This document shows, in pieces, positions 2-19,600 of a stretch of 20,000 nt of DNA. The notes below the pieces were generated by a model. It did not search any database. It worked only from the letters and a program-made list of their open reading frames with translations, and was not told the DNA's origin. The first letter of the stretch is position 1; each line of letters begins with the position of its first letter. The DNA comes from Moniliella sp. 'wahieum'. Lineage: Eukaryota. The position numbers were made by a program, and so were the translations under genes. The stretch spans positions 303,657-323,656 of the forward strand of contig RSEE01000079.1 in the NCBI GenBank assembly GCA_003971905.1. Reading direction: 5' to 3'.

Positions 2-27
2 TCAGGCCTCACATGTCACATGTCACA
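2..27. repeat. Compound array TCAGGCC (TCACATG)2 TCACA
   Basis: Read directly from the sequence. Confidence 0.9.
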
Positions 28-725
28 GCGAGGCCTGAGCGGAATTGCGGCCACCAACCACATCCATTCGGCAACTCTGACGCCGGTGGCTTGGCACCCA
101 GCATCCCCAACAGCATCCCCTCAGTGCCCTCTAATTATTGTGGCTACAACAGCTCAGGACCGGGGTGCGGAAGCACAGGAACAGTGTCTGCCCAAGTGGC
201 CATCAGTCCTCTGCATGCCTCGCTCAGCACTCTGGTAGCACATCCGACCATCGCTGGTGCCGGTGAGCCGAGCGGAGAAGAAAGGCCGGAGGCGCTGGGG
301 GGGCATCAGGTGCATCAGGCCTTGGCCTTATTAGACCGTAGGAACTTTCCGTCGCAGCGAGCACAGTAAGATTGTTCCAGCAGAATAGGCCATTTCTCGG
401 GTTGTGACATGTGATCGGTCATAGATCTGTTTGGTGTGTATAGCCCGTTGTGGCAACTTGAAGCTTGAAGTTTGATGCGCGGGACCACCGGACCCTTCTG
501 GGCTATTTCGATTTCAACGCTGGCGAAGAATCGCCAGATATAGCCAAAATGCTATCGGTTGAACGTTGAACCTCAACAACGCTCAACCAACTCGTTGAAG
601 GTTGAGGCCGTTGAACGTTGAGGTTTGTCCGTTGACATCAACGTTTACCGTCAACGCAACGGTTGAGGACATTGAGGCGTTTCTGAGCCACCCGGTGGCT
701 CGTGCTTTGGCCAATGTCCCTGTAT

Positions 726-1588
726 TGTCACGGGGCGGGCCCACCAGGGGGCACACCCGGGGTTTGGGGGTAATACGATCCCTTAGGCGACGGTAGCCGT
801 CGACTCACGGTAGTTTCGGGCTCAGGCTAGTTGGTGAATCCGAGCGGAGATAGGGACGAGGAGAGGCCTTTGGTGGGGCGGCTGCACGTGTGGCAAGGCT
901 GCGTCTGCACCGGCTTGGGCCGTAGTAACGTGTCTGAAGCCTCCGGGACTTAGGGACGGGAGGGCAGGCAGAGGGGGACAAACACTGCCTCGACTGAGAC
1001 TGAATAGATACTGGAAATCGACGCGGCCAAAGGAGGGCTCGCGCGACTGGACTGACGGATTGCTGGAGGACGAGGTCGGAGGAAAAGTCACGCTAACAAG
1101 AAGAGGCTGCCTGTACTGGATCAATTGGCTGGAAAACGGGCAGGAGTCGGACAGGATAGGCGGGAAAGGACGAGAATGGAGGGTAGACGAGAATGGAAGG
1201 TGGGGGAAAGGATCCCCATCAACCACAGGGGTACAGGCAAGATCAAAAGGGAAACGGATACAAGAGGGGTTAGAAATGAAAAGACACGTCAAAGCGGGTT
1301 GGTGGTCGCAGGCGCGACCGAAAGGAAAAGGAAACAGGGACGGAGCCGACAGAGTCGTCGCAACGACACTGGAAGCTCAGTGGCCTTATTTAGGTCAGCC
1401 GTCTTGGACTTAATAGGCGGGGGCGCCTATTGTCGCGCGGACGCATGGCCCTTCGGACCAAGGTACCTAATTTAGCCAACCATCATCACACTTGGTTTTG
1501 GCCTGCGGAGCGCGCTCTACTGGGCATGTGCAGAGCAGGCGGGCCTTGGCTTGGGTCGGGCCGTCTCGGGTCCACCGCAGCCGTAACA
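726..1588 (-). mobile_element. Candidate solo LTR (863 bp), related to 3466-3816
   Basis: Ends TGTCACGG...CCGTAACA. It shares GGGG.ACACCCGGGG(G)TTT.GGGGTA and ACTCACGG.AG with the reverse complement of 3466-3816. The minus strand has a TATA-like CTATTAAG followed by a pyrimidine-rich tract. No TSD (TGTAT vs CATTT). Confidence 0.5.
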
Positions 1589-2676
1589 CATTTCCTCCTC
1601 AGGCCTAGGAGTTCCGTTTTCTTCTCTCTCCTGTTTTTCCTTTTGTAGTTGGGCAGCTTAGCCCCTGGTGGAGACTCGCTGTTTGATGTTCCTCTTTACT
1701 ATGGCGTTGCTGGCTGGCTTAGTTCACACCACCACCAGTACGATTGCATCACCCTCGAGGACCATCCGGACTCCAGGGCTCATCAGTTGATCAACCCCCG
1801 AAGTTTGAGGCTTGAACGGTTGAATCCAGGAAGGAGAGTATCGCAAGTAATTCACCGAAGGGAACCGGGCTTGGGCTATACCGGTGCCACTATACTACTA
1901 CTATATACCCCCAGTGTTACTATATTATGGGGGTCTGATGCTGAGGCGGAACAAACTGTCTGGAGTCGTGAGGTGGAGAGGAAAGGGCGTGAGATGGATT
2001 TGTTGGTACATCGATGGAGACGGACTGGAGGTGTCTGCTATACCTCAGAAGGGGAAAAGGGGGCACAGCGAGAGATACACACAGGATCTCCCAACGGATA
2101 TAGGAACCACGACATCGTGCCCATACGGGCCTACTAGTGGGCTAAGGGCCCCTGGCACGGAGCGATGAGTCTAACAGCTACCTCCGCATCAGTGCGAAAT
2201 GATGAGAGCATCGGAGGGGGTGTTGCCAATGTGTGGGCGGATCCCTGTAACTAGAGTACAAATTGAAGCTGTGTATCCGTTACAAATACGAAGACAAGTG
2301 GGACCAAGCGCGCCAGGACTACATAAGAGCCTGGAACACCTCAGTACGAGAGAAAGTATGTGACGGACGGCAAAGGGAAGAGGTACTAAAAACATGTCAA
2401 CACATATATTGTGTGCTACACTACTTAGTTAGTCGGTCGCTTTGTGCTTCGTTATAAAACCGACAGGCCGGTCGACTCTTCCGCGTCTGTGGGCGATAGT
2501 TTTTTTCAACACACCTTTTATAATTGGCGTAGACAATGATCCGGCTATACGTTCTTGTCCCTAGTATATACAGTCCGGTTCATGCACGTTCATGATATGT
2601 ATAGTTTCTGACTATTCTCCTCGTTCTGTTGAACTGTGGGCTCCCGTTAGCCCGCCTTCACTTTTCCGAAGTTGTA

Positions 2677-2935
2677 AGCCAAAACTTTTGCTCCAAAACG
2701 GCCAGTGCCCGTACAATATTGTCGCACTTTTTTCTTATTTGTTACGCGAGGAACGGGGGGGCACGCACAGAACTGTGTTTCATTGGAGAACAAGCTGGTC
2801 CTCTGGTTGTCCATGAGCTCGAGACACTTATGGAGGTTGGCATTGAGAAAAAAACGAAGTGTAGTTGAACGCATTGCAGTGATGCTCAACCAACACATTG
2901 GGACCATCCGCCTCATGGTTGAGGTTCTTGAATAG
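2677..2935 (-). pseudogene. Degenerate coding relic with a diverged paralog at ~12507-12755
   Basis: Colinear shared words: AAGCCAA, GCACTTT, ATTTG, GAGGAACGG, GAACTG, GAGCTCGAG, GTTGAACG, CAACCAA, ATTGGG, GAGGTTCTTGA. Minus-strand peptide PFLA*QIRKKC aligns with PFLTKQIKRKC. Confidence 0.45.
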
Positions 2936-3465
2936 ATCTTGCCAACACTCCTCTTCTATATCACAATGTCGATGATCCTCGCCCTCAGCCTTCCGACCAA
3001 CAGCTGAACCGTGGTAAAAAACCGGTGTAAACTCTTTTCCACACCGTGCGGATGAGAGTCTGTTGTATCAACGAAATTGTGGTGATAACTGAAAGGATAG
3101 CCGCCTCACATGCGTGAGGCAGAGCTTATACAGGTACTATGCACGGACGGCCGCATCTACCTAGTTATATATACGGAAGTACTGGAAAATGTGTGCTATT
3201 AGTATTTTCACGCTGCCTTAATCTGTTGTGTGGACTGCGTGACATTGTGACACCTAAGGCTGGCCTAATCCGACGCCACACAAGTGATTTGTTAGGACGG
3301 GTTTCCTTTGCTGATAGTCCCAATAACTGAGGAACAGTTGAAAAAATCATCCTGGTCTCTGTGTCTACATGTGTTGTTGGGGCGAACCGTGAAATGATTA
3401 AGAGATACTGTGAATTTCCCCGGATTTTCCCCAAGGGAGAGCAACCCCTCCAACTATGTATCGGT

Positions 3466-3816
3466 TGTGACGGGCGAACGCTGGCTGACGAGCCGGCAGA
3501 GCGCGCCGATCCCCTGTCCAGTCCTCAGGCTCTTGTATTCGTGCGAGCTAACGTTGGGAGGCAGGCCAACGGAGCTCTTACCCTCGCCCAAGTCCCAGAA
3601 GAGGCGAACATTGGCTGGCGGGCCAACAGCGCCTCTACCTCCTCCGTTTCCCTGCTCCCAAGATGGCTTTGGCTCGCACCCCCGACGTTCGAAGGAAGGA
3701 GGGGCGTGCCGAGCATCCAAGTACCCAATCCCTGTTCCAAGTCTGGTCTGCCGTGAGTAAACTTTAGGATCTCCAAGGCATTGTACCCCTAAACCCCCGG
3801 GTGTCCCCCTTTGACA
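3466..3816 (+). mobile_element. Candidate solo LTR (351 bp)
   Basis: TGTGACGG...TTTGACA ends, flanked by TCGGT and TAGGT (5-bp TSD with one mismatch). Three imperfect internal repeats start at ~3477, ~3550 and ~3607. The 3' part resembles the reverse complement of 726-815. Confidence 0.6.
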
Positions 3817-4310
3817 TAGGTTCTCTTGTCTGGGATTCATGCCTAGAGAAACTCCTGATTCCCATTGTGCCTGACCCCGGCTTTCTCATTGTGCTGTTGT
3901 ACCAATAATGGTATTATGGTCTCCTCTCATCAGCACCACATTTACCCAATAACTGTTCCAGAGATAGTGTGTGCCCGCCCCCTCCATACACTATGCAGGG
4001 CATTATTTTTTCCCTCCAAGACTCATCAGAGTCCGGCCTCATGGACAACCAAATCTCTATTCTGTAACCATATCATTGACAGAGCATAAGGCTGGTACAA
4101 AGAGACGTTGAGACTAAACCGATCCGTTCATCGAACCGGCGAGTGTTGCTTGTTAATAGCGCCAACCCCATTTAGAGAACCAAGGGAAGACCCTCAGGCC
4201 TGAGCCTCAGGTGCTAAAAGAGACCACCCTTTTACTTGACGTAAAATCTGACGGCAGCATGCCACCTGGCACCTTTAGTGCACCCGCATGCAGTGTATGG
4301 CTGAGAAAAT

Positions 4311-4611
4311 TCCTCCAGCGTGGAACGGTGGACCGGTGAACGGTCGCTACAGTGGCGATGATGGAACCATCGCTCACGTACCCACTCTGTTCTTCTCTCC
4401 GTCTCCCTCCCCCCCTCTATCTACCAGTCCGTTGAGGACTCCGCTGAATGAACGGCACCTAGCACTTCCCCTAATAGCCCGCGGTGGCGACGGTAGCGAC
4501 GACGGAACCGTGGAACAGTGGTGGCCACGGTGGCAACCGTGGCCCGCGCCCAGCACAACAAGCTGGGACGAAGCCCCAGCAGACCGGGCCGTAGGCCCGG
4601 TGGCCTCCTAG
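4311..4611 (+). mobile_element. Non-autonomous Helitron-like element, copy A
   Basis: Two GC-rich hairpins (4562-4580 and ACCGGGCC-GTA-GGCCCGGT at 4583-4601), then CTAG (4608-4611) followed by T. The 5' motif TCCAGCGTGGAAYGGTGG is shared with copy B. The 5' boundary is approximate. Confidence 0.65.
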
Positions 4612-5740
4612 TATATATTTTTCAGGCCTCTAAGGCCTCACTCATCCTAAACTGACGAAGGATTCTCCTCCACACCCTCTTCCTTAAAAAAACTTCATGG
4701 AGAATTGCCGATTGCCATTCTTCCACTGCAGCACGTCTTTTTGACGGTCATTATTCCTCTCTGGTGTCCCTTTTTGTTGCTACCACCCGACCCACTGTTG
4801 CAATGGTGACTAGATTCACCGGTCCCGTTAAGCTCTTTCGGCCTCACAGCCTCCGAGGCTCCGCGGGCTCCGAAGTTTGGTAGCCCGTGTGTATAGCCTG
4901 GTAAGCTAGCGACCAATATAGTAGTTGTTCTGGAGTCCTACTCTCGTCCTCCCGTTTGCCACCAAAAAGTCCCCATCTCTGACCCGCAATCGGTCGTCTA
5001 ATAATAAACACTGTCCTATACGCTCAGCATTCATTGCGGTCTCCATTATCCGAGCGAGTGGATCGGGACGTCGCTGCACCTCTGTGTGATCTTCATTCTT
5101 ATTCTTCCGCATATCGACAGCAATATCTTGACCCCTCGCTGAGCAGATAATCGATCATTCTCGCATACAGACGGCCATGACATGCATGACATGATTGAGG
5201 CATGATGCACATGATAATGCATGAATGTGAACGTCAAAATACTTGGACCACATCATTTTATGCGCCTCTCAACAGGATTATGTTATAGTAACTTTTGGCT
5301 GTTCAAAGTAATGCGTTCTCCCGACTCGTTTACCTGCAGCCTTCATTCCCTTACGCCACCATGCATAAATCTCGCTGATGATGCACTGATGCAGGGTGTA
5401 AGAAAACCACCGATGAAAGTAATAAAACCTGCAGAGAGCCGTCATCGCGTCATAATCGATTCGATCTCCCTCATTCCGGCCTCATTCCTCTGCTCGCTCG
5501 CGCACTCAGGCCTGTGCCTCAGGCCTCATCCCGATCGTTAACAACCAGAATAGGGCATCCAACAGCAACGATGGCTAAGTAGTTTATACGAATCCGTACA
5601 ACATTTGTAAAACGGATAGGAGAGGGAGCATATGGCACGAATGCTAGCAAGAAATGTGTTCTCATATGTGTTGGTATTAATAGAAAAGGTCAGTTTCTTT
5701 TCCGAAAACAAAAATGGGATAACATGGTCGAAACATGGTT

Positions 5741-5855
5741 CATAGCTAATCGAAATGCTGGTTACAAGGTTCGGATAGATATGTGAGTACTACGTACAAA
5801 ATTCAAGGTGGGCAAGGCCCACAAGATTGTGCGCAAGAAATTTCGATTAGCTATG
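5741..5855. mobile_element. MITE-like element, copy 1 (115 bp)
   Basis: Perfect terminal inverted repeat CATAGCTAATCGAAAT...ATTTCGATTAGCTATG, non-coding, with a near-identical copy at 7682-7798. Confidence 0.8.
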
Positions 5856-7023
5856 AGTTATGATCCCTCCCCCCCTCCCGGTGCCTTCATCAACATCCCA
5901 TAGTACCCGCCTCCATCATGCATCACTTTCGCCTTCACCCCTTTCGATCAGCTCATGTCGCCCTTCCCCGTGTTTCATTTCGAGCATGTTAAACACGGTC
6001 TTCCTTTCGGTAACCGGTAAACGGTAAACGCCATTAGTATGCAGTACTTGCAATACCGTCACACGTCATGCATCATGTGCGACATGTGACATCACACGTC
6101 ACTGTCCCTGGTCATTTATTTCCATCACACGGCGCGGTGGTGGTTCCGCATATATCACGCCACGACGAGAAATGTCATTAAGGTCGGGTGAAATACAAAG
6201 CCAAGAATTGTGGACTGCAAGTGATGGTTGAAAGCGCATTCCAGCATGTGTCGGACTATAATACAGTAGACGCGCATAACCCTACTAATTGTATTGTCCA
6301 CATCTGAGGCCAACATTGGCTGTCATTTTATTTACTTTTCGCTGCACCCGCGATTCTGGCAAATATCCACCGTCTTGCATTCGTGACAGGGAAACTCTGC
6401 GCTTACCAGAAGCGCCTGACCATTGGTGTCCTCGATCCTACAGGATACCCCAACCTCCACAGACTGTTTCGGGCCTGTGATGCATGATGCATTGATGAAG
6501 CCTGAGGCCGACGGTGAGGCCGTGGGGTCTGGGGCCTGAGTCATGTGACACAGTACTCCATAATATAATGCCACGCTATACGCACAAAAAAGTCAGGTGT
6601 CTACAGCTCCCGCGGTGGAAATCCATCTGGTATCTATAAACATCATATTGCCTTCCGTCTATAGCTCCGATCAATCTTTAGTTCCGACACCGAAAAATGA
6701 GGATATGTCCTGGAAGCATGACATCTTGGGTACATGTGGCATGTGATATACGACTCTACTAACTAATATTCTACTTGAAGCTTGATTAGAAAGTACCAAG
6801 TATAGCGAAGTCACTAGTCACTAGTTGTTACTAGCCGTGGTTGCTATCACATGCCATTAAAAGCGTCATTGTGTGGGGAAACGACGACCAGTTACATGTT
6901 ACGACAGCGGCCACCGTCAGGTAACGGTCGGCCTTTGGCCATACTATCACTGGTATCACCATAGTTTGCATAATCACTATCATTTAATCTCGGATCCTCA
7001 GACTACACCTGCTGCACAGGACT

Positions 7024-7047
7024 TCAAGCTTCAAGCTTCAAGCTTCA
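7024..7047. repeat. (TCAAGCT)3 TCA tandem array
   Basis: Read directly from the sequence. Confidence 0.95.
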
Positions 7048-7186
7048 CAGTAACTAGTAACAGTTAAAATAGCCACAATGATAGTCAGGAGTTAGTCCAG
7101 CTTCAAGCTCTTCAAGCTTCCAGCCTCAAGGTAGTCAGTAGAGTCAGCGATATTTATTTTTGTCCCTGTTGAGAACGTGTTGAACT

Positions 7187-7231
7187 TCAAGCTTCAAGCT
7201 TCAAGCTTCAACGTTGAACGTTGAACGTTGA
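7187..7231. repeat. Compound 7-bp tandem array (TCAAGCT)3 TCA (ACGTTGA)3
   Basis: Read directly from the sequence. It is the clearest example of the window-wide TCA/TGA + 4-bp-palindrome repeat class. Confidence 0.95.
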
Positions 7232-7681
7232 CCCCCGTGACCGCGTGACCCGGGGGCGGGTTACGCGTTGCGGGTTTTGCCTGCGGTATAAGATTACTTA
7301 AATTAACGTTTTTAACCCCAAAGCGACATGTGAGTCTCCGGTGCTTCCCTGAGCCCGAGGCCTGAGCTCTTGAGATCTGGTATGGCATTCGTGCATCATT
7401 AATCATTAATCATTTTTCATGCTCAAGACAGGGACAAAGAAAGGCTCTGCTCCTATTACCGGAGGGCTCACTCATCCGAGACGTGTGTGCTGCTATTATA
7501 TCCTAGTTCGTGCCAGCTCCCAATCCACAGGAGAGACCAGCGAATGAGTTCGGCCGCAGGTCTGGACCCTCTGGCTCCCGCCATTCGCTTCCAAACCGGA
7601 TGTAGCGCGACCCCGTACGAATGAGCGTGGCACACATGTGCGCGATCGATGAACTACATGATGAACCATAGTATATCTACA

Positions 7682-7798
7682 CATAGCTAATCGAAAATGC
7701 TGGTTACAAGGTTCGGGATAGATATGTGAGTACTACGTACAAAATTCAAGGTGGGCAAGGCCCACAAGATTGTGCGCAAGAAATTTCGATTAGCTGTG
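7682..7798. mobile_element. MITE-like element, copy 2 (117 bp, same orientation)
   Basis: Differs from copy 1 by two homopolymer +1 indels and one substitution in the right TIR. Similarity stops at the TIR ends. Flanked by CA on both sides. Confidence 0.8.
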
Positions 7799-8074
7799 CA
7801 GGATCTGAGATCTGAAGTTGTTATAGCTGTAGTTAGTAGTTAGTGGTTGCTAGTTATTAGTTACTATAGTTACCCTAGTTACCCGAAGTACCACCACTAT
7901 ACTTCCTTTGGTAGCTATAGTTGGGTCTTAGGCGTTGGGAGGTCTGTGGCAAAGGCACCTGAGCCTGAGGGTGACCGGCGACATCGGATGCCATGCATCA
8001 TGCACCATGCACCATGCACCATGCAGTTTCATGTGACGACGGTGACCGCTGATATTATGACAGAGCGGTGACAA

Positions 8075-8112
8075 TCACATGTCACATGTCATCATGCATC
8101 ATACATCATGCA
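8075..8112. repeat. Compound array (TCACATG)2 TCA TCATGCA TCATACA TCATGCA
   Basis: Read directly from the sequence. Confidence 0.9.
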
Positions 8113-8843
8113 TCCTGTGACCTGTGACGTGGTGATCCATTCTGGCGTACCATGTACCACAGCAAACGTTTATAGCACTTGGTACCTTGGTAGCCATCCG
8201 CGATTCTTGCGCTCTGATGGTGCCTGTCACAAATGTCAGGCCCTGAAGCCCCGAGGCCTGACTGGGAGCCTCAGGCCTGTAGCCTCAGGCCTCAGGCCGG
8301 TCAAGCTTGCTTCAAGCTTCCAGCTTCAATGCATCGAGACTGCGTGCGCATCACAACGAAGTATCCAGCAAACGGAGAGAAGGGTATTCTCTACGCTCAG
8401 GCTGTGCGTGAGATCTCAGGCTGAAGCTGACGCGCTGACGTTCAGCGTTCAAGTGATTTACCTGTGAGGTCTGAGACTCAGAGCTATGCCAGGCCCCAGG
8501 AGAAGAGCAGACTACTTGGAACCAGTGACTAGTGACTAGTGAAGCTAGTGATCGAGTGATCCCAACGGATGTGGACTCACGCATCACGCATCATGCATCA
8601 TGATTATATTGACAAGTGCGAGATCTGAGAGAGCGCTAGCACTTTGGGGGACCAATCGATGACCCTGATCATACGGTCTAAGACGGTCTAATGATTTTGT
8701 GATATACCTGGCAGCAGTGTAAAAGGAATAGGAGGCAATCTGACTGAGAACTCTGACAGAACACACAGATATCATCTCTGTGCAAGTGCCCGTGCCCACA
8801 TCATCTAAAACGCTATCCACCGTTTTTCCGTCTCTAGCGAACA

Positions 8844-8850
8844 TATATAA
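8844..8850 (+). promoter_or_regulatory. Candidate TATA box of the zinc-finger gene
   Basis: TATATAA followed by a CT-rich tract (~8895-9070), about 330 bp upstream of the finger exon. This is a typical fungal core-promoter layout. Confidence 0.4.
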
Positions 8851-9173
8851 GGGCGCCTCGTCTGCTTCTATAGGAGACACTCACGCCGTTGCAACCCTTT
8901 CTTGCCTTCCTCTCCTTGCAGCCAGGCCTATTACCTCCATCACTCTCTCTCGGAGGCATAGGGTGCCCACAGACACACCCACTCTCTCCACGTCACTTGT
9001 CTCATCCTCCTGCGTCTTCGCCTGCTGCTTCACCAAATCTGCACCATTTCCGGCTTCCCCCCTTTTTCACTACATTCAGTCTCTAGCGCTCACCAATACG
9101 CACTTTTGCATCATTCATCTTCGCAAGATCGCCACAGACTCCCGAGACCATTGTACCTTGCCCCCCCCGAGCC

Positions 9174-9525
9174 AATGAGCACCACTTCCTCGGCGTGTTC
9201 ACTGCGCCTACCTATCCAAATCCTTCGTCAAATTACACGGCTTCGCCCGAGACGCGTGCGAGTGATGGGGATCAAGAGGAGTCACGAGTTTTTACTTGCA
9301 CTGTCTGTTTTCGCAACTTTAACCGACTCCTCCACCTTCAGCGTCACGAGTACATTCATTCGGACTTGAAGCCTTTCAAATGCCCTTGGTGTCCTAAGGT
9401 AAGTGAATAAATCGCTGGTGTGGTGCTATCCTAGAACTAACGTAAGATATTCTCATCTGAAGTCATTCACACGTCAAGACTCCTTGGTCCGTCATGCGCG
9501 CTTGCACTGCAAAAAAAAGGTGTAA
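9174..9525 (+). CDS. C2H2 zinc-finger transcription factor, two tandem fingers; exons ~9174-9398 and 9463 onward, start codon unresolved
   Basis: Finger 1 is FTCTVCFRNFNRLLHLQRHEYIH, the linker is SDLKPF, and finger 2 is CPWCPK/SFTRQDSLVRHARLH. Finger 2 is joined in frame by removing intron 9399-9462 (GTAAGT...CTAAC...AAG). The nearest ATG (9175) is out of frame. Confidence 0.85.
9399..9462 (+). other. Spliceosomal intron in the zinc-finger gene (64 nt)
   Basis: GTAAGT donor, CTAAC branch site, AG acceptor. Splicing restores a canonical C2H2 finger. Confidence 0.85.
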
Positions 9526-10332
9526 GCTTGTGTCGAAAGCCCTACACAAGCACAAAGGTACGTCTGCTTTTGCATGAACCCTGGTCCCTTTAAGAACCCG
9601 AACCTGAGCGCTGACCACGTTCGCAACTTTACAGCGTGTATGAACTGCTCTGACTTAGAGCAATGTTCACGATGTGCTGGTATAACCGCCGCCCTACTGT
9701 CAAGAAAAAAATATCCCGAGTACTTACTCTCCCGATCATTTCCTCAACGCCTACCGTTGCACCAGCCCGATACAATGCCCTCCAACAGGGATATACTCCA
9801 CCACGGTTTACCGTTCGATGTAGACGCAATAACCCGGCCCCCCATTCATTTACAGACTTGCAGGCTTATCCTATTACGCGCCTTGAATCTGCAGCATCAC
9901 GATCGGGCATGAGTGCGTTGTCCTCTTGTACTTATTTGTGGGTTTATCATATCCAGCTGCAGACTGACTCTTCCTTATTTTACTAGTGACTGTGCCCCTC
10001 TTGAGTCCAGAAGAAAACGGAGGTCCTTCGAGCATGAAGTCTATCATTTCAACGAAGAACGACCTCTCCTCTGTTCCGGAGGGAAGCCTTGACTCCGTCC
10101 CTTCTGCAACAGGTACTCGTACATGCCGTCTCAATTCTCGTCTCGACCCTTCCGGGAGCATTGGCTTCAACTTCGCCCCACTACTCATGCGCAAGAGTCG
10201 CGGGATTCCATTTCCCGGTTGGGTTGTGAGACAGTTCATCCATCTCCTGGCACCCCCACTTCTACCCAAATAGGGAACCCTTTGGATTTGTCCTCTGGTG
10301 AAGGCAGAGCAGCTCAATGCCACCTGGACTGA
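9521..10332 (+). pseudogene. Disrupted downstream part of the zinc-finger gene with a degenerate Zn(II)2Cys6-like motif
   Basis: A 1-nt shift at the A8 run (9511-9518) links finger 2 to ...KHKACMNCSDLEQCSRC. A further acceptor with CTGAC branch ends at ~9986. Ser/Pro-rich frames follow, with shifts and stops. Confidence 0.45.
9558..9634 (+). other. Probable second intron (77 nt)
   Basis: GTACGT donor, GCTGAC branch site, TTTACAG acceptor. The spliced product reads HK-ACMNC. Confidence 0.65.
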
Positions 10333-10848
10333 TTGACGAATCGGAGAGGTGCGTACAAGGCATGTTAATGGACATGCTCCGTACTTGTGAGGTCATGGAA
10401 CGCTCTCTTCGTTCCAAAACCCCGTCTGGTCTCCCTGGCATGGTTACCGAGGAGTTTATATGAACTAAAGAATCCATGCATAGCATTTCCTTCGGGACCG
10501 TGACAAATAATAGTTGATCACAGCTTCACCCGCCTTCTGTTTTGAAGCAGATGAAAGACGACGAATTCCTAGCTGTGTACTATCCTTTTGTTATCACTAT
10601 CCTTCTGTTATCGATTATCAAAAAAAGTTTTGTCGATCTCACAACATGTGTGGTTGTTCTGTTCTCCATGTTTCTGTGCATTCTGATCATAAAAATTCCT
10701 ATTACCCGCTCTGCTGACGCTCGCTGAACGCTGGGGATAGGAAACGCTAGCCCACATCTATCAGCTCCCTCGCAATGAGGGGGACGGATACATGTACAGA
10801 TCTGTATTATTATGGAGATCGCGGTGAGGCTGAGGACTGAATTCAACA

Positions 10849-10873
10849 TTCAGTACGTTCAGTACGTTCAGTA
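10849..10873. repeat. 9-bp tandem repeat (TTCAGTACG) x2.8
   Basis: Read directly from the sequence. The unit contains TCA+GTAC. Confidence 0.85.
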
Positions 10874-11373
10874 GTGGTGACTGAGGAGACTAAGGCCTCA
10901 ACTGAGGGCTGAGGGTACTGAACTGAGAGACCTCAGAGCCTCACAGAAGGCTTCAATGGCCGCTGTCGGCGGCAACCGCTCGTTCCCATAACCCTAACGC
11001 ACAACACCTTAACCACGCGCTCTGGGGGGTTGCGTTGTCTTCTTCGAAAAGTCCCTGTGAAACCCCCGCATCCGTTACTCGTTACTTCTTTTCGCAGAGC
11101 CGCTCTCATGGTGACCTGTGACATGTGACAGACATCAGGCATATGACATGTGACTTACAAAAGTTGGACATTTTTGACATATGGCACAGTCACTATTAGT
11201 CACTGGATGTGACATGTGACATGCGACAATGTCACAGGCCATCGATGCCAGTATAGACGCATATATACTGTGGCATCTCCATATTACGATGGGAAACGCC
11301 TGTGCACTTTTTACATCAGCTGCCCCGTGCCACGTTCCCAACCACCCGCAGCCAGAGTATCGGTGATATTATT

Positions 11374-11546
11374 TCCCTCTCCAGCGTAGAAGGGTTCCAG
11401 CGTGGAATGGTGGCTACGATGGCGACGGGGGAACGGTGGCTAAGGTGTGGCGAAGGTGGACCGGTGGCAAGGTGGCGACGGCGCACCAAGCACCAAGCTG
11501 GGGCGAAGCCCCAGCTGACCGGGCCGTTGGCCCGGTGGTCTTCTAG
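11374..11546 (+). mobile_element. Non-autonomous Helitron-like element, copy B
   Basis: Perfect hairpins AGCTGGGGC-GAA-GCCCCAGCT (11496-11516) and ACCGGGCC-GTT-GGCCCGGT (11518-11536), then CTAG (11543-11546) followed by T. The 5' boundary is approximate. Confidence 0.7.
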
Positions 11547-12506
11547 TCACCATATAATGCTTTCCAATTGCTCTGGTCCTGCACAGAGAGTGTATATTTC
11601 ACTGCAACCCAGAGCCCAACATGCAGCCAGCTTCGTATTATGGGGCTCCACAGCAGGTGTTGCTCATTCTGTCTATCAACAGTTTGGTATACACCCCTTT
11701 ATTAATAGCATCCTTTGTACCTGATTCCCTCAGGCTGTAGTCCACGTCCATTCCGGATTCCCCATGAAGGGTGGAAGAGTGCTTTGGATGCTGGGCGCTG
11801 ATCGGTATTCATATTCTTTCGATATTCAGGCTACATGAGAGTGGTTGTGTTGACTGTGGTCCTCTGGTCCTACAGTCGGTAGACCAGTTCGCCTCGGTTC
11901 CGCTGCTTCCACGCCGCGAGTATCGTCCCAGCGTGGCACTGCACCTGTTGCCTGTGCATTCTCTCCTGTAGTCTCACTGGTCTGTGCCTAGTCCGAGATG
12001 CCCCTGCACCCAGACCCATGTCTTGCTTCAAGATCCATCACCTTTTCTCCTCGGGCCTCATCGGCACCGGTCACCCCTTCTTCCCATCCGGCTCCCTAGG
12101 CCAACAAATGTTGCCTTAGGCCTTAGTCCTGAAGCTATTATAACCCTTATATACCAACAGAGGGAAGAGATCGGAGAAGCCATCACACGAGGAACAAGGC
12201 GCAGTGATGAGCTAGTGATGAGATAGAGAGAGACATGAAGGGTCAAGGAAATCTAGAACAGTAGGGTGTTACGCGCAATCGACGAGTATGTGTCTGTGAC
12301 TCGTCGCCACCCCGAAGCGGCTGTGTACTATCACTCGGGGATCCCCGGATACGCTTTCTGGCCTTCTCAACCGTCGCGTCTCGCCCTCTTCCTCCGGAGC
12401 CGACTCATTGTGTCCCGGATGGAGCCCACGATCTTGAAGATTGACTTCCGGCCAGCCTTAGTTAGCCAACGGGGGTCAAACAGTTGGATTGGGTGCGGGG
12501 GTGCAA

Positions 12507-12755
12507 AAGCCAATATGTGCTCAAGCCATGCCAACAGTCCCCACGTGCACTTTCTTTTAATTTGCTTCGTGAGGAACGGCACACACCGAACTGGAGACAA
12601 ATATGGGCCTGCCTTTTGGTGAGCTCGAGGCGCTTTTGGCTGTTGCTGACATATCAAAAGGGAAGCCATCAAGCTCAAGCTTCAAGTGTCACATGTCATC
12701 GTTGAACGTTGAACCAACCAACCAAACATATTGGGTTGAGAGGTTCTTGAGTATT
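12507..12755 (-). pseudogene. Second copy of the degenerate coding relic at 2677-2935
   Basis: Same colinear words in the same orientation. KRLELT corresponds to KCLELM, and LAWLEH to LAVLEQ. Confidence 0.45.
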
Positions 12756-13065
12756 AGCTCCTTCTGACTCTTCTCCCACACATCTTCCTTTTCTTGGCTC
12801 TGCCGTCACTACCTGATGGCGGTTCAAGCTAAATGATCTCGCGGTGAGAGGATAGATACTATAGGTTTTCCACATCTTTTAGTTCAGATCCATATGCGAT
12901 ATATATATATATAGGTGGTAAAGTAGTTGATCATATATTAGGCCCGGTGTGGGTGCTGGGACACCATTCCCTCGTCTACCGTTTCCCTGTCCACCGTTCC
13001 TCTGTCCCCCGTTGACCTGGCCTGGGAGCGCTGCGCCATGGACTACACGGAGCGTATGATATACA

Positions 13066-13117
13066 CTGGGGGACCACCGGGGGTCTACGGGCCGGTCCGC
13101 TGGGGCTTCGGCCCAGT
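13066..13117 (-). mobile_element. Degenerate Helitron-like 3' end, copy C (inverted)
   Basis: Reverse complement ACTGGGCCGAAGCCCCAGCGGACCGGCCCGTAGACCCCCGGTGGTCCCCCAG-T matches the ends of copies A and B, but the terminus is CCAG. It probably extends towards ~13250. Confidence 0.6.
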
Positions 13118-13361
13118 CTGTCCTTATGTGCTGATGGCGACGGTTCACGGCCATACTCTTCCCTCCGCTCGTCTACGTGTTGGGCGACCGTCTCCACCGT
13201 ACCACACCCTAAAACCGTCTAAAGACCCACAAACGCGTTCTACCTCTCTTGGGTTAGTTGATGGAAACGGATGTGGTGCGGGCGCCGGAGGGTCCTGCTC
13301 TGCTGGTGGCCCCATGATTTACTATTTCGGGTTTGGTGCCAACAAGCGCAGCGTGAAAAGG

Positions 13362-14330
13362 TCATCTTCGGCATTCGAACGAGTGCCAAAAAATGAGGGC
13401 GCAGAAGTGATCAGGCGGCAGACTGGTGCCGGCAAAAACGATAAGAGACGCCCGACAACACAAACCCCTACATAATTGTCCCATCCATCCAGCAGAGTTT
13501 GAGCAAAAAGTTGGTGCTTGCTTCAAAGGGGAATCGAACCCTGTCACATCGATGTCTAAGGGCAAAGCGGCCGTAATGGCAACGATGTAGTATACCACTA
13601 ACCCATTGAAGCTATACGTTGGGGAAATGGTATAGTAAATTCCCCCTACATGCAATGAACTGTGTTGCAACATGTCGGTGTTTTCAATTGGTAAAACATC
13701 TTTCGCATAAGGCTCGCAATGATCCAAGAGAGTACGCGGAGCAGGTAAAAAGCCATTCTCTCTTTGTATTTTCAGGTTTGTCTTCCAGTGGTTTTGATAG
13801 AAACCCACATCCTCCATTCTCTCCTTCAGCACAAAAACCAAAAAGAAAAGCTAACATCTCTTTCTCGTGGGTCTCGTTGTCGCCAACATTGAACCCAATA
13901 TCCTAGCGCGTCCTGGCTAATGAGGACCTGCATAAGGAATGACTGAGGCCTGAGGGCCTGGGATGAGAGGCCACACTAGGCGTTGTCGGGCCCAAACGCT
14001 CCCTGACAACAATGGCGTATGTAATGGTTCCATTGGAGCTCTTTATAGGGGGGCGTTGTGCCTGTGCTCAATTTTACGGTTGTTGACAGAAGGTTAGAAC
14101 AGACGAGACGGACACTCTATGCGCGCCATTGGCTCTCTTCCCTCATCTCCTCGTCTTTTGCCGCCCAAGACTCCTCCTGTCTTTTTTTGTCCTTTTTGTC
14201 AGCGACTAACGCTTGTGTGGCTTCACTTCTCTCTCCTACATAAGGATTGTCCGTTTCCGCCTCTTCTACTTCTTAGTTGCCTCCTCGGGCCCTCCTAGCT
14301 GTTGATCCCTATAAACATGAATAAAGCAAA
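13362..14330 (-). pseudogene. Possible degraded gene of unknown function
   Basis: 159-aa protein-like ORF (13362-13841), plus an upstream charged segment (EEAETDNPYVGERSEATQALVADKKDKKRQEESWAAKDEEMREE) near an acceptor-like TTTATAG. No recognisable domain. Confidence 0.25.
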
Positions 14331-16308
14331 TGTCGTCGGATATGGGGGGCGGTGAACGAGCTTAAAAGCTTGTCAAATACAATGAAGATGGAGGATTGTT
14401 TCCTTGGTGGTACAATAATACAGCCTGGGATGTATTACCTCTTTTTATGTAGTCAGTGCCGACGGTTCACCCGCCCTGAACAAGCATCATATGCATCATG
14501 CAACAAGCATAACATTATGTATCTTGCTTGTGTATATACTTAGCTCTCATAGGGACACAGAAGAGTACACAGACCCAATACACCCCCTTGATGAGTTTGA
14601 AGCTTGCTTCAAGACTTACATTTTAAGTGGCTACTATAGTGACTAGAGCGATCTGACTGCCTCGGTTCTCGTATCTCAGATTCTCCAAATCTCAGATGTG
14701 AGGCCTGAGGTCTCACCATAGTACATTAGAGGCACGACCATAGGCTGTGCAACTAATGTCTCTCAGCCGCTTAATACCGGACTTTTGTTCCGAATTATAT
14801 AACCCTACTGAACTGAGTAGGATACCACACGGCGGCAGGTTACCGATTACCGGTTATCGATGATCGATGAGTGAGCTTGACGCTTGAAAAGGACATAAAT
14901 ACACGATGCCTGAGCCTCACTAGTCACTAGTTTCATTAGTCACTCGGGTCAGGGCCTAGACCAGCTGAGATCTGGGAGTCGGCTCAGAAACTCGGCTTTC
15001 TTGCACACAGGTGGTCGTTCGTAGGGAATCAAGTGAATCATTAATCATTAGACGTCGGTGCGCCTTACAGTTATTGACATGTTGACACGAGACAAAAAAG
15101 GACAAAGAGGCCGAGAGCTGAGGTCGGAGAGGCACAAGTGTGAGTCATATATACATGAATGTGCCGGAGAATTGCCAGTCGTTCATCGATCATCGATCAT
15201 CTAGTAAAACACTGTGGAAGTTGCCTTCCGTGTCAGCTTTACATGATATGCCGCCGGGCCGTGTCTTCTCGGCTCGGCTTTTTCTTCGGCTGCTTCGGGT
15301 TGCTGTGCAATATAGCACGGGTGGGACTTCGCGCAGGCTCATCAAGTAAAGTACGTCAACCACACGCCACTAGCAGTCGGCTTAGCACACATTCGGCGGG
15401 ACCAGTGGTAAGACCGAACAACAGAGTGAACGAGGCGTTTGTGCACCGTGGCGAAAACTGACGTTGAACCACAAAACTAAGGCAGGAGTACACATATCTC
15501 ACCGTAATGCGTGGTGTCAACTGTATCACTCGTATAGTACTGAATATGCCAAGGTGGATATAAGGTGGATAACGACGAGGTGGAAACTTCGCCCCCAGTC
15601 TACGGATGAGATACCATTATCTCTTCCGCCAGAGGGAGGGGGGGAAGGGCAACAGAATGAGAGCAGTATACGGTTGAGTCGGCTTCAGCAGACCATTGGG
15701 CAAAGCAGAACTATGAGCTGCGCCCCCCCCTTCCACTGATGGAGGAAACTAGCCAGCTACAACTTGTCTCTCACACTGAGATGCATGACATTTTTCTAGT
15801 AAGCGAATGAAGGAAGGGAATTGCTTTGGATTCCGATAACCATGGTATTCATTCAGGATATTCAGGCTGCATATGTAATGATGCCTTATATCCAGAAAAA
15901 AGGAGAAGCAATCATTAATCACACAGTAAATAATGAGTAATGAGAGACACAAACACAATGGGTCAAGCTAGTAGGGTCACCAGTCAAGGAAGATCTTGAA
16001 CAGGGTCATATACGCGCAGCCGGTGTGTATCTGTGTGTGACCCATCATGAGGCGACACTCCTTTCCTGTCATCCCACCCTATCAACTATCTGGCTCCCCT
16101 GTTTGGAACTCAGCATTCATCACATATTTCGTTTCGCTCCTATCTGCTCTCCTCCTTCTGTACTAATGGCTCTTTCTCAATTGTCCCATCCCCTATTATA
16201 AACCACCAACATGTATACTGTGGAGAGCACCTGTTGCTGTTCCCTATGGAGGGAAGGGGGAATACCGGACAAATGATACCCACACGAGTAGGTCGTAGCC
16301 TCTATGGT

Positions 16309-16624
16309 TGTTCGACATGAATGGCAAAGGAAAGCCAAGTGCCGACTGAAGAGACGCCCGGGGGTCACGATGAGGGTTTCGAAGGGATGCGCCAGATGGG
16401 AGGACAAAGGGAGTGTCACAGGCCTAGCTAGCGATGCTGACGATGATGGATGGAGATGGCATTCAAGAGCTAAGGAGAGCTAGAGCTATGGGCCTTGATA
16501 GGCTCCTGGCCTGGAGGCCAGTGGAAACCCGTGGAAGGACCGGAACTCACTGCCCCGGTGCATTGTGTGCATCGGGCCACGTGTCACTGAAGGCCGATGG
16601 GCTCTAGACCACTGGTGGTCAACA
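16309..16624 (-). repeat. Probable 3' LTR of the copia element (~316 bp)
   Basis: On the minus strand it starts TGTTGAC directly after the PPT and ends GTCGAACA (TG...CA with a short imperfect terminal inverted repeat). The left boundary is inferred because the 5' LTR is not in the window. Confidence 0.65.
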
Positions 16625-19600
16625 CCCCCACTGGCCAGAGGTCTCGGTGGCACGGTGGAAGGTTGTAACGTCCTCAAGCTTGAGGCGAGGCAAGTTGGCC
16701 AGGAGTGAGACCTTAGTGGCTGGTTTGGTGAGGATGTCGGCCGGGTTCTCGTTTCCAGCAATGTGCGCGATTTTGACTTCGCCCGAGTCGACATGCTGGC
16801 GTACGTTGTGGTACCGGATGTTCAGCTCACGTAGTTTGCCCGTGCTGCCTACTTTTTCGGCTAAGGCAAGTGCCGCCATGTTGTCGCAGTACCAGTGTAT
16901 GGCTCGTCTCAGTCTCAGTGATGGCACCGAGCTCCACTAAGATGTTTTTGACATAGTTCGCATCAATGAGGCCCTCATATCCCGCCGTATATTCGGCCGC
17001 AGCAGTGTTGGTGACGCTCTTGGGTTGACGCACGCTCCTCCAGGACACTGGAACTCCGTAGACGAAAGCAGGCATCCCGACGTGGAACGCCATTGGTCAG
17101 GGTCTCCAGCCAGGTCGGCATCCGTGTATAGCGCGAGAGCGGGTGCGTCAGGCTCGGGTGTTAGTTGGAGACCGTAGCCCTTGGTACCGTAGAGGTACGG
17201 AGGAAGTTTGTAGCCGCAGCGCGGTGGGCCTTGGAGGGATCGGCAGTTGCTCGGCTTAGAGCTGAGATGCCGAACAGCGCATCAGGGCGGCACATGCGGG
17301 CAGCCCACAACCCAGATCCTACTTTGGCTTGGTAGTCGCGTCTCTCGGCGGGCAGTGCTGGCGGTTCGGGTCGGTGCGCGCGGGGATCATCTTGCTGGGG
17401 TGGAGGAGGCCCATAACCAGGGGTGGCGGAACCTCATGTTTGGCAATGGATTCCTCAATGAATTTTGGCTGGCTGAGGTACAGTTTCCCGTTTATGGTGT
17501 CGTACTGGCAGCCAAGATGGTAGTGTAGGGGGCCGTTTCCCCGCACCTCGATATGGGTGTTGATCTCAGTGAGGAAGGAATCGTAGCGTGAGTGAGACGT
17601 GCAGGCGATGAGAAGATCGTCGGTGTGCACGGCAAGGAGGACCGGGTCGCCTTTACGGGGTCGGATGAACAAGCACGGCTCAGCCAGAGATTGTACAAAA
17701 CCCATGTCTCCGCGGAGCAAGTCACGGATGATACCGCCCAGTTTGCGCCGGATTGGTGGAGGCCATATAGGCTTTTCCGGGACGCCAGACCTTGCCTTTT
17801 CCCTCGGGAAAGAATGGGGGTGGGCGGAGGTACACTTTTTCCGTGAGGGGAGCGTTCAAATAGGCAGAGTGCACATCAGCGGTGAAGAGGTGGAGGCCGA
17901 ACTTTCCAGCAAGTGCGATAAGGCTGAGGATGGCAGGAGTGCACACGGCAGGGGCGAATGTTTGTCCCCATGTGTCAGCATCCTGCTGGTGGCCCCGGCA
18001 ACGAGACGGGCTCGGTAGCGTAGGAAATTTCCGTCCGCGTCCGTTTTGGTGTTGATGCGCCACAGACCAATCAGCAGCTGCGCGTCTGGAGGGGGCGGTG
18101 ACGACTTCGAATGTGCCGTAGCGGGCTAGGGTGTCGATTTCCGTGCGCATCGCCTCCAGCACTGGTTCGAATGAGGGGTGTTGATTGGAGGCCCTTCATG
18201 TCTTGGGTGCAACAGGTACTCCGTCCTTGGTGAGCTGGATGCGCTCGTGCGGCCCTGGCTCGCTAAGGGCGATCATCGCCTTGTATTCAGGCGGATGGAG
18301 ACCGTCGCTGTACGCGGGCAGGGCAGTGTCGGGCAGTGGGAAGCGTAGGCCGATCGCAGGACTACGACTACCGTCAGGGAGGGGAACCGGAGGCAGCGCG
18401 GCAGCGTGTGCGTGGAAGTCACCATCATGAGGGTCGTCCGCTACGGGGAGCTGTGCCCAGTCAAGGTCAAAACGGCGCTGGTGGGTCCGGGCGGGGTACC
18501 GTCTGGTGGTGGGGTGGTTGGATGGGTGTCGTTTTGTCTTGCGATGGTCGCGTCAGTATCAGTGTTGATTCTCGGTGGTGTGTTGGGATTTGCACTTCAA
18601 TTTTGTTCATTTTTTCTTCTCCCTTTTGGTTTCTGTGTCAGTCATAGTTCTGTCAGGCAGGGGTTGAGCGGGGAAGCGAGATACGTCAGGCGGAAGCGGT
18701 CGGGGAAAACCTCGTGATATTGGCGCTGGTCCACTTGTATGGTTTTGCCCATTGGGATCGGAACGTGCCCATGGACGGGTCGTACCAGCCCAGCGCCAAC
18801 CCTTTGTACCTCGACCTGCGTCGTACCCGACGAGCATGGCTTCGACAGCCCGCTGACTGAGCTTATGGTCACGTTGGTCCTGGCCAGGTGAAGGTACGCC
18901 AAGGATCCGAAGGCGTGCATTGGCAGCGGTGGGGGTGACCCCTTGTACAGCTCAGCCCGAGATTGTGTGCCCTGGCGTGGAGATGTCGGTGGCATGAGTT
19001 GTGCGTCCAGCACCCTGCCAGCAAGGCATCCTGCCACCAGTTTGATGTCGGGAGGCCCGAGGCGATGATGAGTTGCGCGCGCGCGTGGTGATTGCCTGGA
19101 TGGCTCGCTCGGCCACCCCATTTGATTGACTTTGGCCTGGTATGGTGGTTTCCGTCGTGATACCTTCGGATTCAAGGAACGGACGGAGTGCGCTGGTGAG
19201 CTCGGGGGCATTGTCTGTCTTCAAGATGCGAAGCAACGGTCCTTTCCGATGCGTTGCTCGCGGGTGATGAGTTTTTTCAGCTCCGCCGTGGCTTGTCCTT
19301 TCGTCTTTAGGGGAACAGCGAAGGTGTAACGGCTCCAGTCATCAACCGCGACCAGGGCGTATCCATGTCCCATGCCAGTGATGCGAGGGAGGTCGACTAC
19401 GTCGGCGTGCAGTACTTCGAAAGGACGTTCCGAATGCGGCGGCCGTGGCGCGAAGGGTGGCTGGGCGCTTTGGCCAGAGCTTTTGTGCAGGTGGGACAAT
19501 GCCAGAAGGGGCGGATGCGTCGGATTTGGGCAGGGCTGACGCGGAGGCTCGCTCGCGCGTTGGCGGTTAGTGTCGGGAGTAGGTCTAGCGCGGCGTGGTT

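Follow-up and report, generated by a model that had tools for sequence, protein, structure and literature searches.

Short heptanucleotide repeats recur in a 20-kb stretch of DNA from Moniliella sp. 'wahieum' (contig RSEE01000079.1, positions 303,657 to 323,656; hereafter the window), which has a G+C content of ~52% and looks like gene-poor fungal DNA. The repeats arose from an event that duplicates exactly 7 bp around a T-N-A centre, with C or G preferred as the middle base and the outer four bases free. Two copies may adjoin directly or be separated by a few bases, and these spacer bases are P (palindromic) nucleotides. A fixed 7-bp direct duplication combined with P nucleotides is the classic footprint of a transposon that seals its flanks as hairpins, and the window repeats show a single fixed length, junction bases that are reverse-complementary to the flank and a symmetric target motif. 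Thus, the 7-mer repeats are probably excision footprints of a cut-and-paste DNA transposon that lies outside the window.

Heptamer duplications around a T-N-A centre

Exact tandem duplications of at least two copies numbered 27 at period 5, 12 at period 6, 31 at period 7, none at period 8, four at period 9 and none at periods 10–12; by our own arithmetic, chance would give about one exact period-7 duplication in 20 kb of random sequence. Some rotation of the unit forms an interrupted palindrome (NNN-x-N'N'N') in 21/31 period-7 runs, with TCA or TGA at the centre in 20 cases and TTA in one. A preliminary description, made from the sequence alone, had proposed that micro-repeats of unrelated appearance obey one grammar, and the 20/31 units that are TCA- or TGA-centred interrupted palindromes bear this out. 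The enrichment over a Markov background that it anticipated was also found in the window: under an order-3 Markov model, NN-TCA-N'N' occurred 66 times (23.8 expected) and NN-TGA-N'N' 49 times (24.8 expected), and none of the 14 other NN-xxx-N'N' centres was enriched. The third base of the duplicated 7-mer is T and the fifth is A, TCA and TGA being the only enriched centres, and the T-N-A phase was present in 61/78 period-7 runs of at least 12 nt. The outer dinucleotides around TSA (S, C or G) are of at least 10 kinds and share no common half-site. The arrays and scars are as follows, with no strand assigned and with left-end and right-end remainders in brackets.

9–27, array of TGTCACA, 19 nt, ends (5,0)
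403–414, single-event scar TGTGA-CA-TGTGA (5+2+5), ends (0,5)
457–470, exact 2 x CTTGAAG, ends (0,0)
558–571, exact 2 x GTTGAAC, ends (0,0)
609–621, scar of GTTGAAC, 13 nt, ends (1,5)
5516–5528, scar of CCTCAGG, 13 nt, ends (1,5)
5914–5925, scar CATCA-TG-CATCA, ends (0,5)
6008–6020, scar of GGTAACC with a T-A-A centre, 13 nt, ends (1,5)
6066–6077, scar TCATG-CA-TCATG, mirror form, ends (5,0)
6081–6092, run of TGTGACA, 12 nt, ends (4,1), off-phase and possibly decayed
6478–6492, array of CATGATG, 15 nt, third copy broken by a 1-nt insertion
6774–6785, scar CTTGA-AG-CTTGA, ends (0,5)
6809–6825, array of AGTCACT, 17 nt, ends (0,3)
6891–6902, run of TGTTACA with a T-T-A centre, 12 nt
7022–7047, array of 3 x CTTCAAG + CTTCA, 26 nt, ends (0,5)
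7049–7061, run of AGTAACT with a T-A-A centre, 13 nt, ends (0,6)
7185–7211, array of 3 x CTTCAAG + CTTCAA, 27 nt, ends (0,6), in phase with the adjoining array at 7210–7231
7210–7231, array of GTTGAAC, 22 nt, right-end remainder 5
7395–7414, array of AATCATT, 20 nt, ends (6,0)
7802–7815, array of TCTGAGA, 14 nt, ends (2,5)
7992–8004, run of CATCATG, 13 nt, next to the derived CCATGCA array at 7999–8025
8075–8091, array of TGTCACA, 17 nt, ends (5,5), neither end explained by the simple model
8090–8102, run of CATCATG, 13 nt, ends (0,6)
8282–8298, array of CCTCAGG, 17 nt
8309–8320, run of CTTCAAG, 12 nt, within an imperfect array
8524–8542, array of 2 x AGTGACT + AGTGA, 19 nt, ends (0,5)
8588–8602, array of 2 x CATCATG, 15 nt, ends (1,0)
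10608–10619, scar TTATC-GA-TTATC with a T-T-A centre, ends (5,0)
11117–11130, exact 2 x TGTGACA, ends (0,0)
11207–11223, array of TGTGACA, 17 nt, one substitution in the third copy
12113–12126, array of CCTTAGG with a T-T-A centre, 14 nt
12675–12686, scar TCAAG-CT-TCAAG, mirror form, ends (5,0)
12687–12698, scar TGTCA-CA-TGTCA, ends (0,5)
12700–12714, array of 2 x GTTGAAC, 15 nt, ends (1,0)
13943–13955, scar of CCTGAGG, 13 nt, ends (6,0)
14491–14502, run of CATCATG, 12 nt, off-phase
14699–14710, scar TGAGG-CC-TGAGG, mirror form, ends (5,0)
14856–14870, array of GATGATC, 15 nt, right-end remainder 5
14917–14931, array of AGTCACT, 15 nt, left-end remainder 5
15036–15050, array of 2 x AATCATT, 15 nt, ends (0,1)
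15183–15201, array of GATCATC, 19 nt, ends (5,0)
15910–15921, scar AATCA-TT-AATCA, ends (0,5)

Most positions given for these arrays in the preliminary description were confirmed as they stood (2, 9, 459, 560, 6811, 7024, 7187, 7396, 7802, 8075, 8092, 8285, 8526, ~8590, 11210, 12703, 14917, ~15038 and 15183). Three others hold in slightly different form, namely 7211 (as 7208/7215), 14857 (as 14861) and 4194 (C and then G); at 8301 the position was right, and the array is the sole imperfect one (8309–8329, 85% matches in Tandem Repeats Finder). Altogether ~53 scar loci lie in the 20 kb, none of them at 16–20 kb, where a 3.4-kb copia-type element is located. Lag-7 autocorrelation is highest in three islands, at 6400–8700 (0.354), 10800–11300 (0.324) and 14500–15300 (0.324), and stays at ~0.25–0.29 elsewhere. 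No homology among the islands was found outside the arrays themselves, and a single dispersed repeat family, the origin that the preliminary description had named as fatal to its proposal, was therefore dropped. The proposal that one process lies behind the micro-repeats is supported.

The units are direct copies. Palindromic N4 tetramers in the context N4-TSA-N4 numbered 21 (0.28 expected), whereas non-palindromic ones stayed at chance level (4 observed, 2.84 expected). When TSA-N4-TSA pairs with a palindromic N4 were scored per position, so that one long array contributes several pairs, the central base was identical in 46 (0.88 expected) and different in four (1.06 expected). Because the central base agrees in 46 of the 50 adjoining pairs, the units are direct and not inverted repeats. 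Fold-back, template-switch or hairpin copying would complement the central base, and was rejected. The suggestion of nick, hairpin or template-switch repair next to TCA/TGA thus survives in part: hairpin involvement is retained, and copying by fold-back or template switch is not.

Polarity distinguishes the target from the product. Every T-S-A run of at least 12 nt was aligned on the NN-TSA-N'N' unit, which gave 37 runs with 74 ends; 26 ends fall at the unit border and 21 directly after TSA, so that 47/74 occupy two of the seven phases (2/7 expected, p = 4.6e-10). Run lengths follow 5+7k, with 12 nt found 11 times, 13 nt five times, 19 nt three times, and 20, 26 and 27 nt once each. A typical locus reads (N1N2-TSA-N2'N1')k, then N1N2-TSA, and then two unrelated bases. 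The outermost of the two bases beyond the after-TSA ends is compatible with a palindrome in 3/21 cases, which is the chance level. Hence the terminal, non-palindromic 7-mer represents the original target, whereas the palindromic units are products; with so few compatible bases, the 12-mers cannot be read as decayed exact 14-mers or decayed palindromic units. Palindromy arises in the process and is not a target property. Consequently, there is no need for an enzyme that demands palindromy at positions where the base is free. Recognition of a palindromic target, considered at an earlier point, was replaced by the P-nucleotide reading after the analyses of the polar ends and the spacers. A row of in-phase heptamers at 14840–14870 (GGTTACC, GATTACC, GGTTATC, GATGATC) contains both single-arm intermediates between two palindromic units, as though their halves had been swapped.

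The spaced repeats carry the P nucleotides. We searched for direct repeats of nnTNAnn 7-mers across a short spacer, and found three loci with a 1-nt spacer (7236, 8426 and 8547) and six with a 2-nt spacer (304, 5176, 7101, 7868, 10857 and 15851), where ~0.1 locus per spacer class, or ~0.2 for the two classes together, would be expected. These footprints, and two with a 3-nt spacer, are listed here, again with no strand assigned.

7236–7250, +8 footprint, CGTGACC-G-CGTGACC, whole 7-bp duplication and one P nucleotide
8426–8440, +8 footprint, GCTGACG-C-GCTGACG
8547–8561, +8 footprint, AGTGATC-G-AGTGATC, G complementing the last base of the left copy
304–319, +9 footprint, CATCAGG-TG-CATCAGG, TG being the reverse complement of the initial CA of the right copy
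5176–5191, +9 footprint, CATGACA-TG-CATGACA
7101–7116, +9 footprint, CTTCAAG-CT-CTTCAAG, CT being the reverse complement of the terminal AG of the left copy
7868–7883, +9 footprint with a T-T-A centre, AGTTACC-CT-AGTTACC
10857–10872, +9 footprint, GTTCAGT-AC-GTTCAGT, within a period-9 array at 10849–10873
15851–15866, +9 footprint, ATTCAGG-AT-ATTCAGG
2578–2594, +10 footprint, GTTCATG-CAC-GTTCATG, CA read by us as left-copy P and C as right-copy P
11188–11204, +10 footprint, AGTCACT-ATT-AGTCACT, the outer A and T read by us as 1-nt P from each side

In all nine loci with 1-nt (3/3) or 2-nt (6/6) spacers, the spacer bases are reverse-complementary to the adjoining copy end, although a random 2-nt spacer would be of this type ~12% of the time (about seven in eight would not). 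The 7-mers themselves are mostly non-palindromic (for example CATCAGG, AGTGATC and ATTCAGG). The terminal base of the copy is retained and its complement follows directly, which makes an even palindrome, as in AGTGATC-G-AGTGATC. The 2-nt spacer of the 5+2+5 scars obeys the same rule, and the joint between copies accordingly holds 0–3 P nucleotides complementary to the adjoining copy end; in the spacer ATT at 11188–11204 the middle T is left unaccounted for by this reading. The palindromic 4-mer, which the preliminary description had singled out, is two flank bases plus two P nucleotides from off-centre opening of a flank hairpin. Its first candidate origin, a 7-bp target-site duplication (TSD) or excision footprint, is the one we favour, without the palindromic 4-mer in the role of target or TSD. 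Four perfect 10-bp palindromes of the form TSA-N4-TS'A (at 4194, 7208, 8409 and 16674; 1.06 expected) could be scars carrying longer P tracts.

Metagenome contigs

When metagenome contigs were scanned for one heptamer in three copies, 121 loci were obtained, which share homology with the window in the array and none outside it. Most hold the seed array alone, and several show the whole syndrome. The 621 bp of locus L120 hold two arrays and four P-type scars, whose spacers are 1, 1, 2 and 3 nt long. L021 combines one +8 scar with an array of 19 nt, ends (0,5), and L026 has four +8 scars, the identical four being present in L048, apparently the same sequence. In L057 there are two scars whose P tracts are 3 nt long, besides two 12-nt runs and two 20-nt arrays that keep to the expected phase. 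Among the 18 loci of a group whose contig names share a prefix (119.7 kb), 7/24 period-7 duplications outside the seed were of the T-S-A palindrome type, against ~1.4% expected. The scar-bearing contigs encode fungal-type genes, including an NLR with ankyrin repeats, a polyketide synthase and a KDZ transposase domain. Because several unrelated metagenome contigs carry the same scars, the feature is not an artefact of one assembly, and their presence in unrelated environmental contigs suggests a wide distribution of the element, or of its chemistry, among fungi.

Three further observations concern these contigs. The seed-array contig L056 carries a KDZ transposase domain (E = 1.9e-17) and tandem 73-bp units, with features at 1290–1853 and 4040–4800. 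The same 172-bp inverted-repeat element occurs in L020 (9560–9745) and L031 (3444–3629), flanked by the 7-bp direct repeat TAATTTA, itself an interrupted palindrome; these two contigs are probably from another organism. In L080 (1510–1849), an element of ~340 bp has 31-bp terminal inverted repeats (29/31 matching) that start CATGATGG and is nested in a larger imperfect inverted repeat.

Proposed mechanism, competing explanations and known systems

We propose that insertion would proceed through a cut at nnT(S>W)Ann (W, A or T) with a stagger of 7 bp, and that on excision each flank would be closed as a hairpin exactly at the border between element and flank. A host nuclease would then nick the hairpins open 1–3 nt from the tip, and end joining with both copies intact would yield the +8, +9 or +10 scars. 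The commonest scar, +7, would comprise one copy minus its last 2 nt and the other plus 2 P nucleotides: if both hairpins were opened 2 nt off the tip, two 4-nt self-complementary overhangs would stand in register and one of them would be kept, so that nnTSA-yy would become a perfect NN-TSA-N'N' unit with the former NN-TSA-yy after it. Re-insertion into such a perfect unit would create two identical cohesive overhangs, whose clean ligation would gain one unit. Arrays would then grow in a ratchet-like manner, one unit per cycle, which would explain the exact 14-mers at 457, 558 and 11117; slippage may also extend arrays. It is conceivable, though we regard it as doubtful, that the scars mark an undescribed fungal lineage defined by a 7-bp TSD at nnTSAnn, border hairpins and a 'footprint ratchet', or else a domesticated enzyme with the same chemistry of which no element is left. 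In such a 'footprint ratchet', scars would be perfect sites for re-insertion and clean repair, and successive cycles would write arrays, A-NNNN-T 6-bp palindromes and the seeds of microsatellites, acting in gene-poor DNA at >2 scars per kb.

Several findings weigh against excision of a transposon by this scheme. No element with a 7-bp flanking duplication was found in the window or in 20 metagenome loci (the 18-locus group, L030 and L021), and inverted-repeat scans with flanking repeats of 2–10 bp or of 7 bp returned array-against-array matches only. Elements with terminal inverted repeats flanked by such 7-mers, which the preliminary description had envisaged, were likewise lacking in the window and the scanned metagenome loci. 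This absence is weak evidence, since the DNA searched amounts to 20 kb plus ~130 kb. The density of ~53 scar loci in 20 kb is very high, and far above any density of transposon scars known to us. The product that would arise if both overhangs were lost, TSATSA, is not enriched (18 observed, 18.6 expected), and the +11 product, with both overhangs kept, is absent from the window. For the +7 class, the scheme has to presume a loss of precisely 2 nt. Some arrays fall outside the simple scheme, namely the switch of central base at 7208 and both ends of 8075–8091, and the in-phase row of unlike units at 12675–12714 cannot be derived from it. Moreover, in the 18-locus group just one of the four spacer loci is of the P type.

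Variants of the scheme were set aside during the analysis. A 5-bp TSD with two P nucleotides would also yield this +7 product, but would not account for the complete 7-mer repeats at the spaced loci, and a TSD of 8 bp minus 1 was dropped on hand comparison with the observed arrays and spaced repeats. The one candidate element, at 8470–14696 and flanked by TGTGAGG, proved on alignment to have no terminal inverted repeats.

One competing explanation invokes a transposase-like or RAG-like nuclease without a lasting element, either a domesticated enzyme or abortive hit-and-run events of short end fragments. Staggered 7-bp events and flank hairpins at nnTSAnn would then leave scars to build up with no element family behind them. 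Under this explanation the sequence would show identical chemistry, no element was located in the window or the metagenome loci scanned, and the density and regional clustering of the scars are very high; yet a window of 20 kb makes the absence of an element weak evidence. Furthermore, to our knowledge a 7-bp duplication requires that two ends undergo strand transfer into the target and are then removed, and we know of no described element-free system that makes such duplications. We consider this explanation unlikely. Ordinary repeat instability, in which quasi-palindromic heptamers would form slipped hairpins and grow by slippage or flap ligation, draws support from derived non-palindromic units that are also multi-copy, such as CCATGCA x 3.9 at 7999–8025, and because such units exist slippage-like growth after seeding is probable. 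Slippage cannot, however, create the first copy, and about one exact period-7 duplication is expected by chance; slippage also leaves unexplained the fixed T-N-A centre, the polar ends with an unrelated 2-nt tail (47/74 ends in two of seven phases) and the 9/9 P-type spacers between 7-mers. As an account of the whole pattern it appears quite unlikely.

The second candidate of the preliminary description, a 4-bp palindromic TSD with a TCA/TGA end remnant, has a mirror form in which a 3-bp TSA TSD would be joined to 2+2 nt of inverted-repeat tips, and complementary tips would indeed give a palindromic N4 and a constant central base. The two forms predict runs of 4+7k in phase (2,2), starting and ending within N4, or of 3+7k in phase (5,5). 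Phase (2,2) was found in 0/37 T-S-A runs of at least 12 nt and phase (5,5) in one; among the 45 runs of at least 11 nt there was one of each, the single case in the 4-bp-TSD phase being an 11-mer at 7099. The non-palindromic N4 repeats around TSA that a 4-bp TSD predicts occur at the chance level given above, full 7-bp direct repeats are present at the +8 and +9 loci, and the mirror form would require ~10 element families with differing tips and one common target. Both forms were thus judged very unlikely. We think it equally improbable that the repeats are selected sequence, such as clustered binding sites of a dimeric protein or sub-terminal repeats of one dispersed element. The islands do adjoin a zinc-finger gene fragment and a tRNA gene, but the many outer dinucleotides without a common half-site and the lack of homology beyond the arrays speak against it, and a binding-site model has no room for P-type spacers and polar ends. 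An assembly or amplification artefact is extremely improbable, as the same scars occur in several independent metagenome contigs of other records and we know of no type of sequencing error that would create 7-bp duplications whose junction bases are complementary.

Excision of a DNA transposon, the reading that we prefer, can be compared with known systems. Scars of P elements retain inverted-repeat remnants, which are absent from the window scars, where the junction bases are derived from the flank. The Tc1/mariner footprint TA-CWG-TA is a 7-bp interrupted palindrome at the repaired donor site, with paired overhangs and a central mismatch. In that footprint the TSD supplies the outer TA and the element supplies the centre, whereas all seven bases of a window unit are target DNA and its palindromic part is a copy of flank bases. 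Coding joints made by RAG carry P nucleotides, and TSDs are usually 8–10 bp in Mutator-like elements (MULEs) and 5 bp in Transib. The window duplication of 7 bp differs from the usual MULE length, and the +8 and +9 scars with full 7-bp repeats differ from the 5-bp TSD of the Transib/RAG group. Neither a MULE nor a Transib protein signal was detected in the window (Pfam, 86 open reading frames).

For the remaining comparisons, statements on published systems follow extracts of the papers cited. With hAT, Transib, RAG and the MULE Muta1, host enzymes open hairpins formed on the flanks, and footprints remain after end joining; for Muta1, the hairpin comprises 43+43 nt from both flank strands, and >90% of excisions in yeast were precise (extracts of PMC5499845). 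As that hairpin holds both 43-nt flank strands, the Muta1 break lies at the element border. The even P palindromes of the window would correspond to a hairpin closed at the border, as in Muta1, although the precision reported for Muta1 in yeast in those extracts sets it apart. Ac/Ds footprints in Candida albicans and budding yeast contain P-nucleotide palindromes and are repaired by end joining, and hAT palindromes centre on the complement of the base that borders the element (extracts of PMC5873905). As far as those extracts go, the window scars resemble Ac/Ds in keeping both TSD copies, in host-opened flank hairpins and in P palindromes at the joint. They differ in that the hAT hairpin is odd with the bordering base changed, whereas the window scars are even with the terminal base retained. 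Odd hairpins of the hAT type were rejected for the window, where copies keep their terminal base and its complement follows (AGTGATC-G-AGTGATC). The chemistry of the scars fits MULE, Transib and RAG, and not hAT.

TSDs of 7 bp are recorded for the fungal hAT7 of rust fungi and for Kyakuja in Laccaria, and TSDs of 2–5 bp for the CACTA/Mirage/Chapaev/Transib clade (extracts of PMC12730594). Among hAT elements, whose usual TSD is 8 bp, the length in the window matches hAT7 alone in this material. Kyakuja, further characterised by CA..TG termini and a KDZ transposase with a CxC domain, agrees with the window in TSD length. In the window there is just a below-threshold CxC3 match (E = 0.0064), and a KDZ domain is present in the scar-group contig L056. 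Galileo, of the P superfamily, has a 7-bp TSD with the consensus GTANTAC, an interrupted palindrome around a free central base (extracts of PMC4168063). The resemblance, on that evidence, extends to the length and the interrupted palindrome, but the Galileo centre is A-N-T as a consensus preference, whereas that of the window is T-S-A and the palindromy of the single site is manufactured. The feature works like a flank-hairpin transposon footprint, and no superfamily assignment is possible. Its kind is known, and the combination of a T-S-A 7-bp target, border hairpins, a dominant +7 scar from which palindromic heptamers result, array growth and very high density is new to us. A search of the literature on heptanucleotide or palindromic repeats in fungi did not turn up a description of the phenomenon, which is not proof that it is unpublished.

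The scars reveal the TSD length, target motif, hairpin position and opening offset of a transposon that has not itself been seen, and can thereby guide a full-genome search. They also offer a concrete origin for heptanucleotide micro-repeats and short palindromes that would otherwise be classed as odd microsatellites. If the density holds genome-wide, cycles of insertion and excision would rank among the main local contributors of new sequence in this lineage. Because the 3.4-kb copia element is free of them, the scars may indicate where landing is preferred.

Other features of the window

The remaining content of the window is sparse, and its annotated features are these.

9087–9407, C2H2 zinc-finger exon, followed by an intron with GTAAGT and CTAAC signals
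13519–13612, minus strand, tRNA gene with an intron (Rfam, 41.8 bits)
~16600–20000, minus strand, degenerate and frameshifted copia-type retroelement with Pol_BBD, rve and RVT_2 in several frames
16180–16479, minus strand, weak CxC3 match in a 100-residue open frame (E = 0.0064, 16.7 bits, cut-off 26.6)

ARAGORN predicted no tRNA in the window, the gene found by Rfam at 13519–13612 included. Pfam scans of 86 and then 27 open reading frames of the window recovered solely the copia domains, the C2H2 finger and the below-threshold CxC3 match. CxC3 is a cysteine cluster that accompanies KDZ transposases; the match is not significant given the 86 frames scanned, and no KDZ domain lies beside this frame. 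The copia-type retroelement has a G+C content of 58–60%, and AT-biased mutation is not evident in it.

Two families of dispersed repeats were also observed. Members of the first are 75–85% identical and lie at 4483–4612, 11409–11547 and 13059–13150 (inverted); no Rfam family was found for them at the gathering score. This family terminates in two adjoining GC-rich hairpins preceded by GGTGGCGA-like short repeats, and its copies at 11.4 kb and 13.1 kb are opposed, in the arrangement of foldback-element arms. The second is a miniature inverted-repeat element of ~115 bp, present in two copies that are 97% identical (5741–5855 and 7682–7798), with 15-bp terminal repeats starting CATAGCTAATCGAAA and without a 7-bp flanking repeat. 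If its ends are moved 4 nt inward, the flanks become TA, which would suggest a miniature inverted-repeat transposable element of the Tc1/mariner type.

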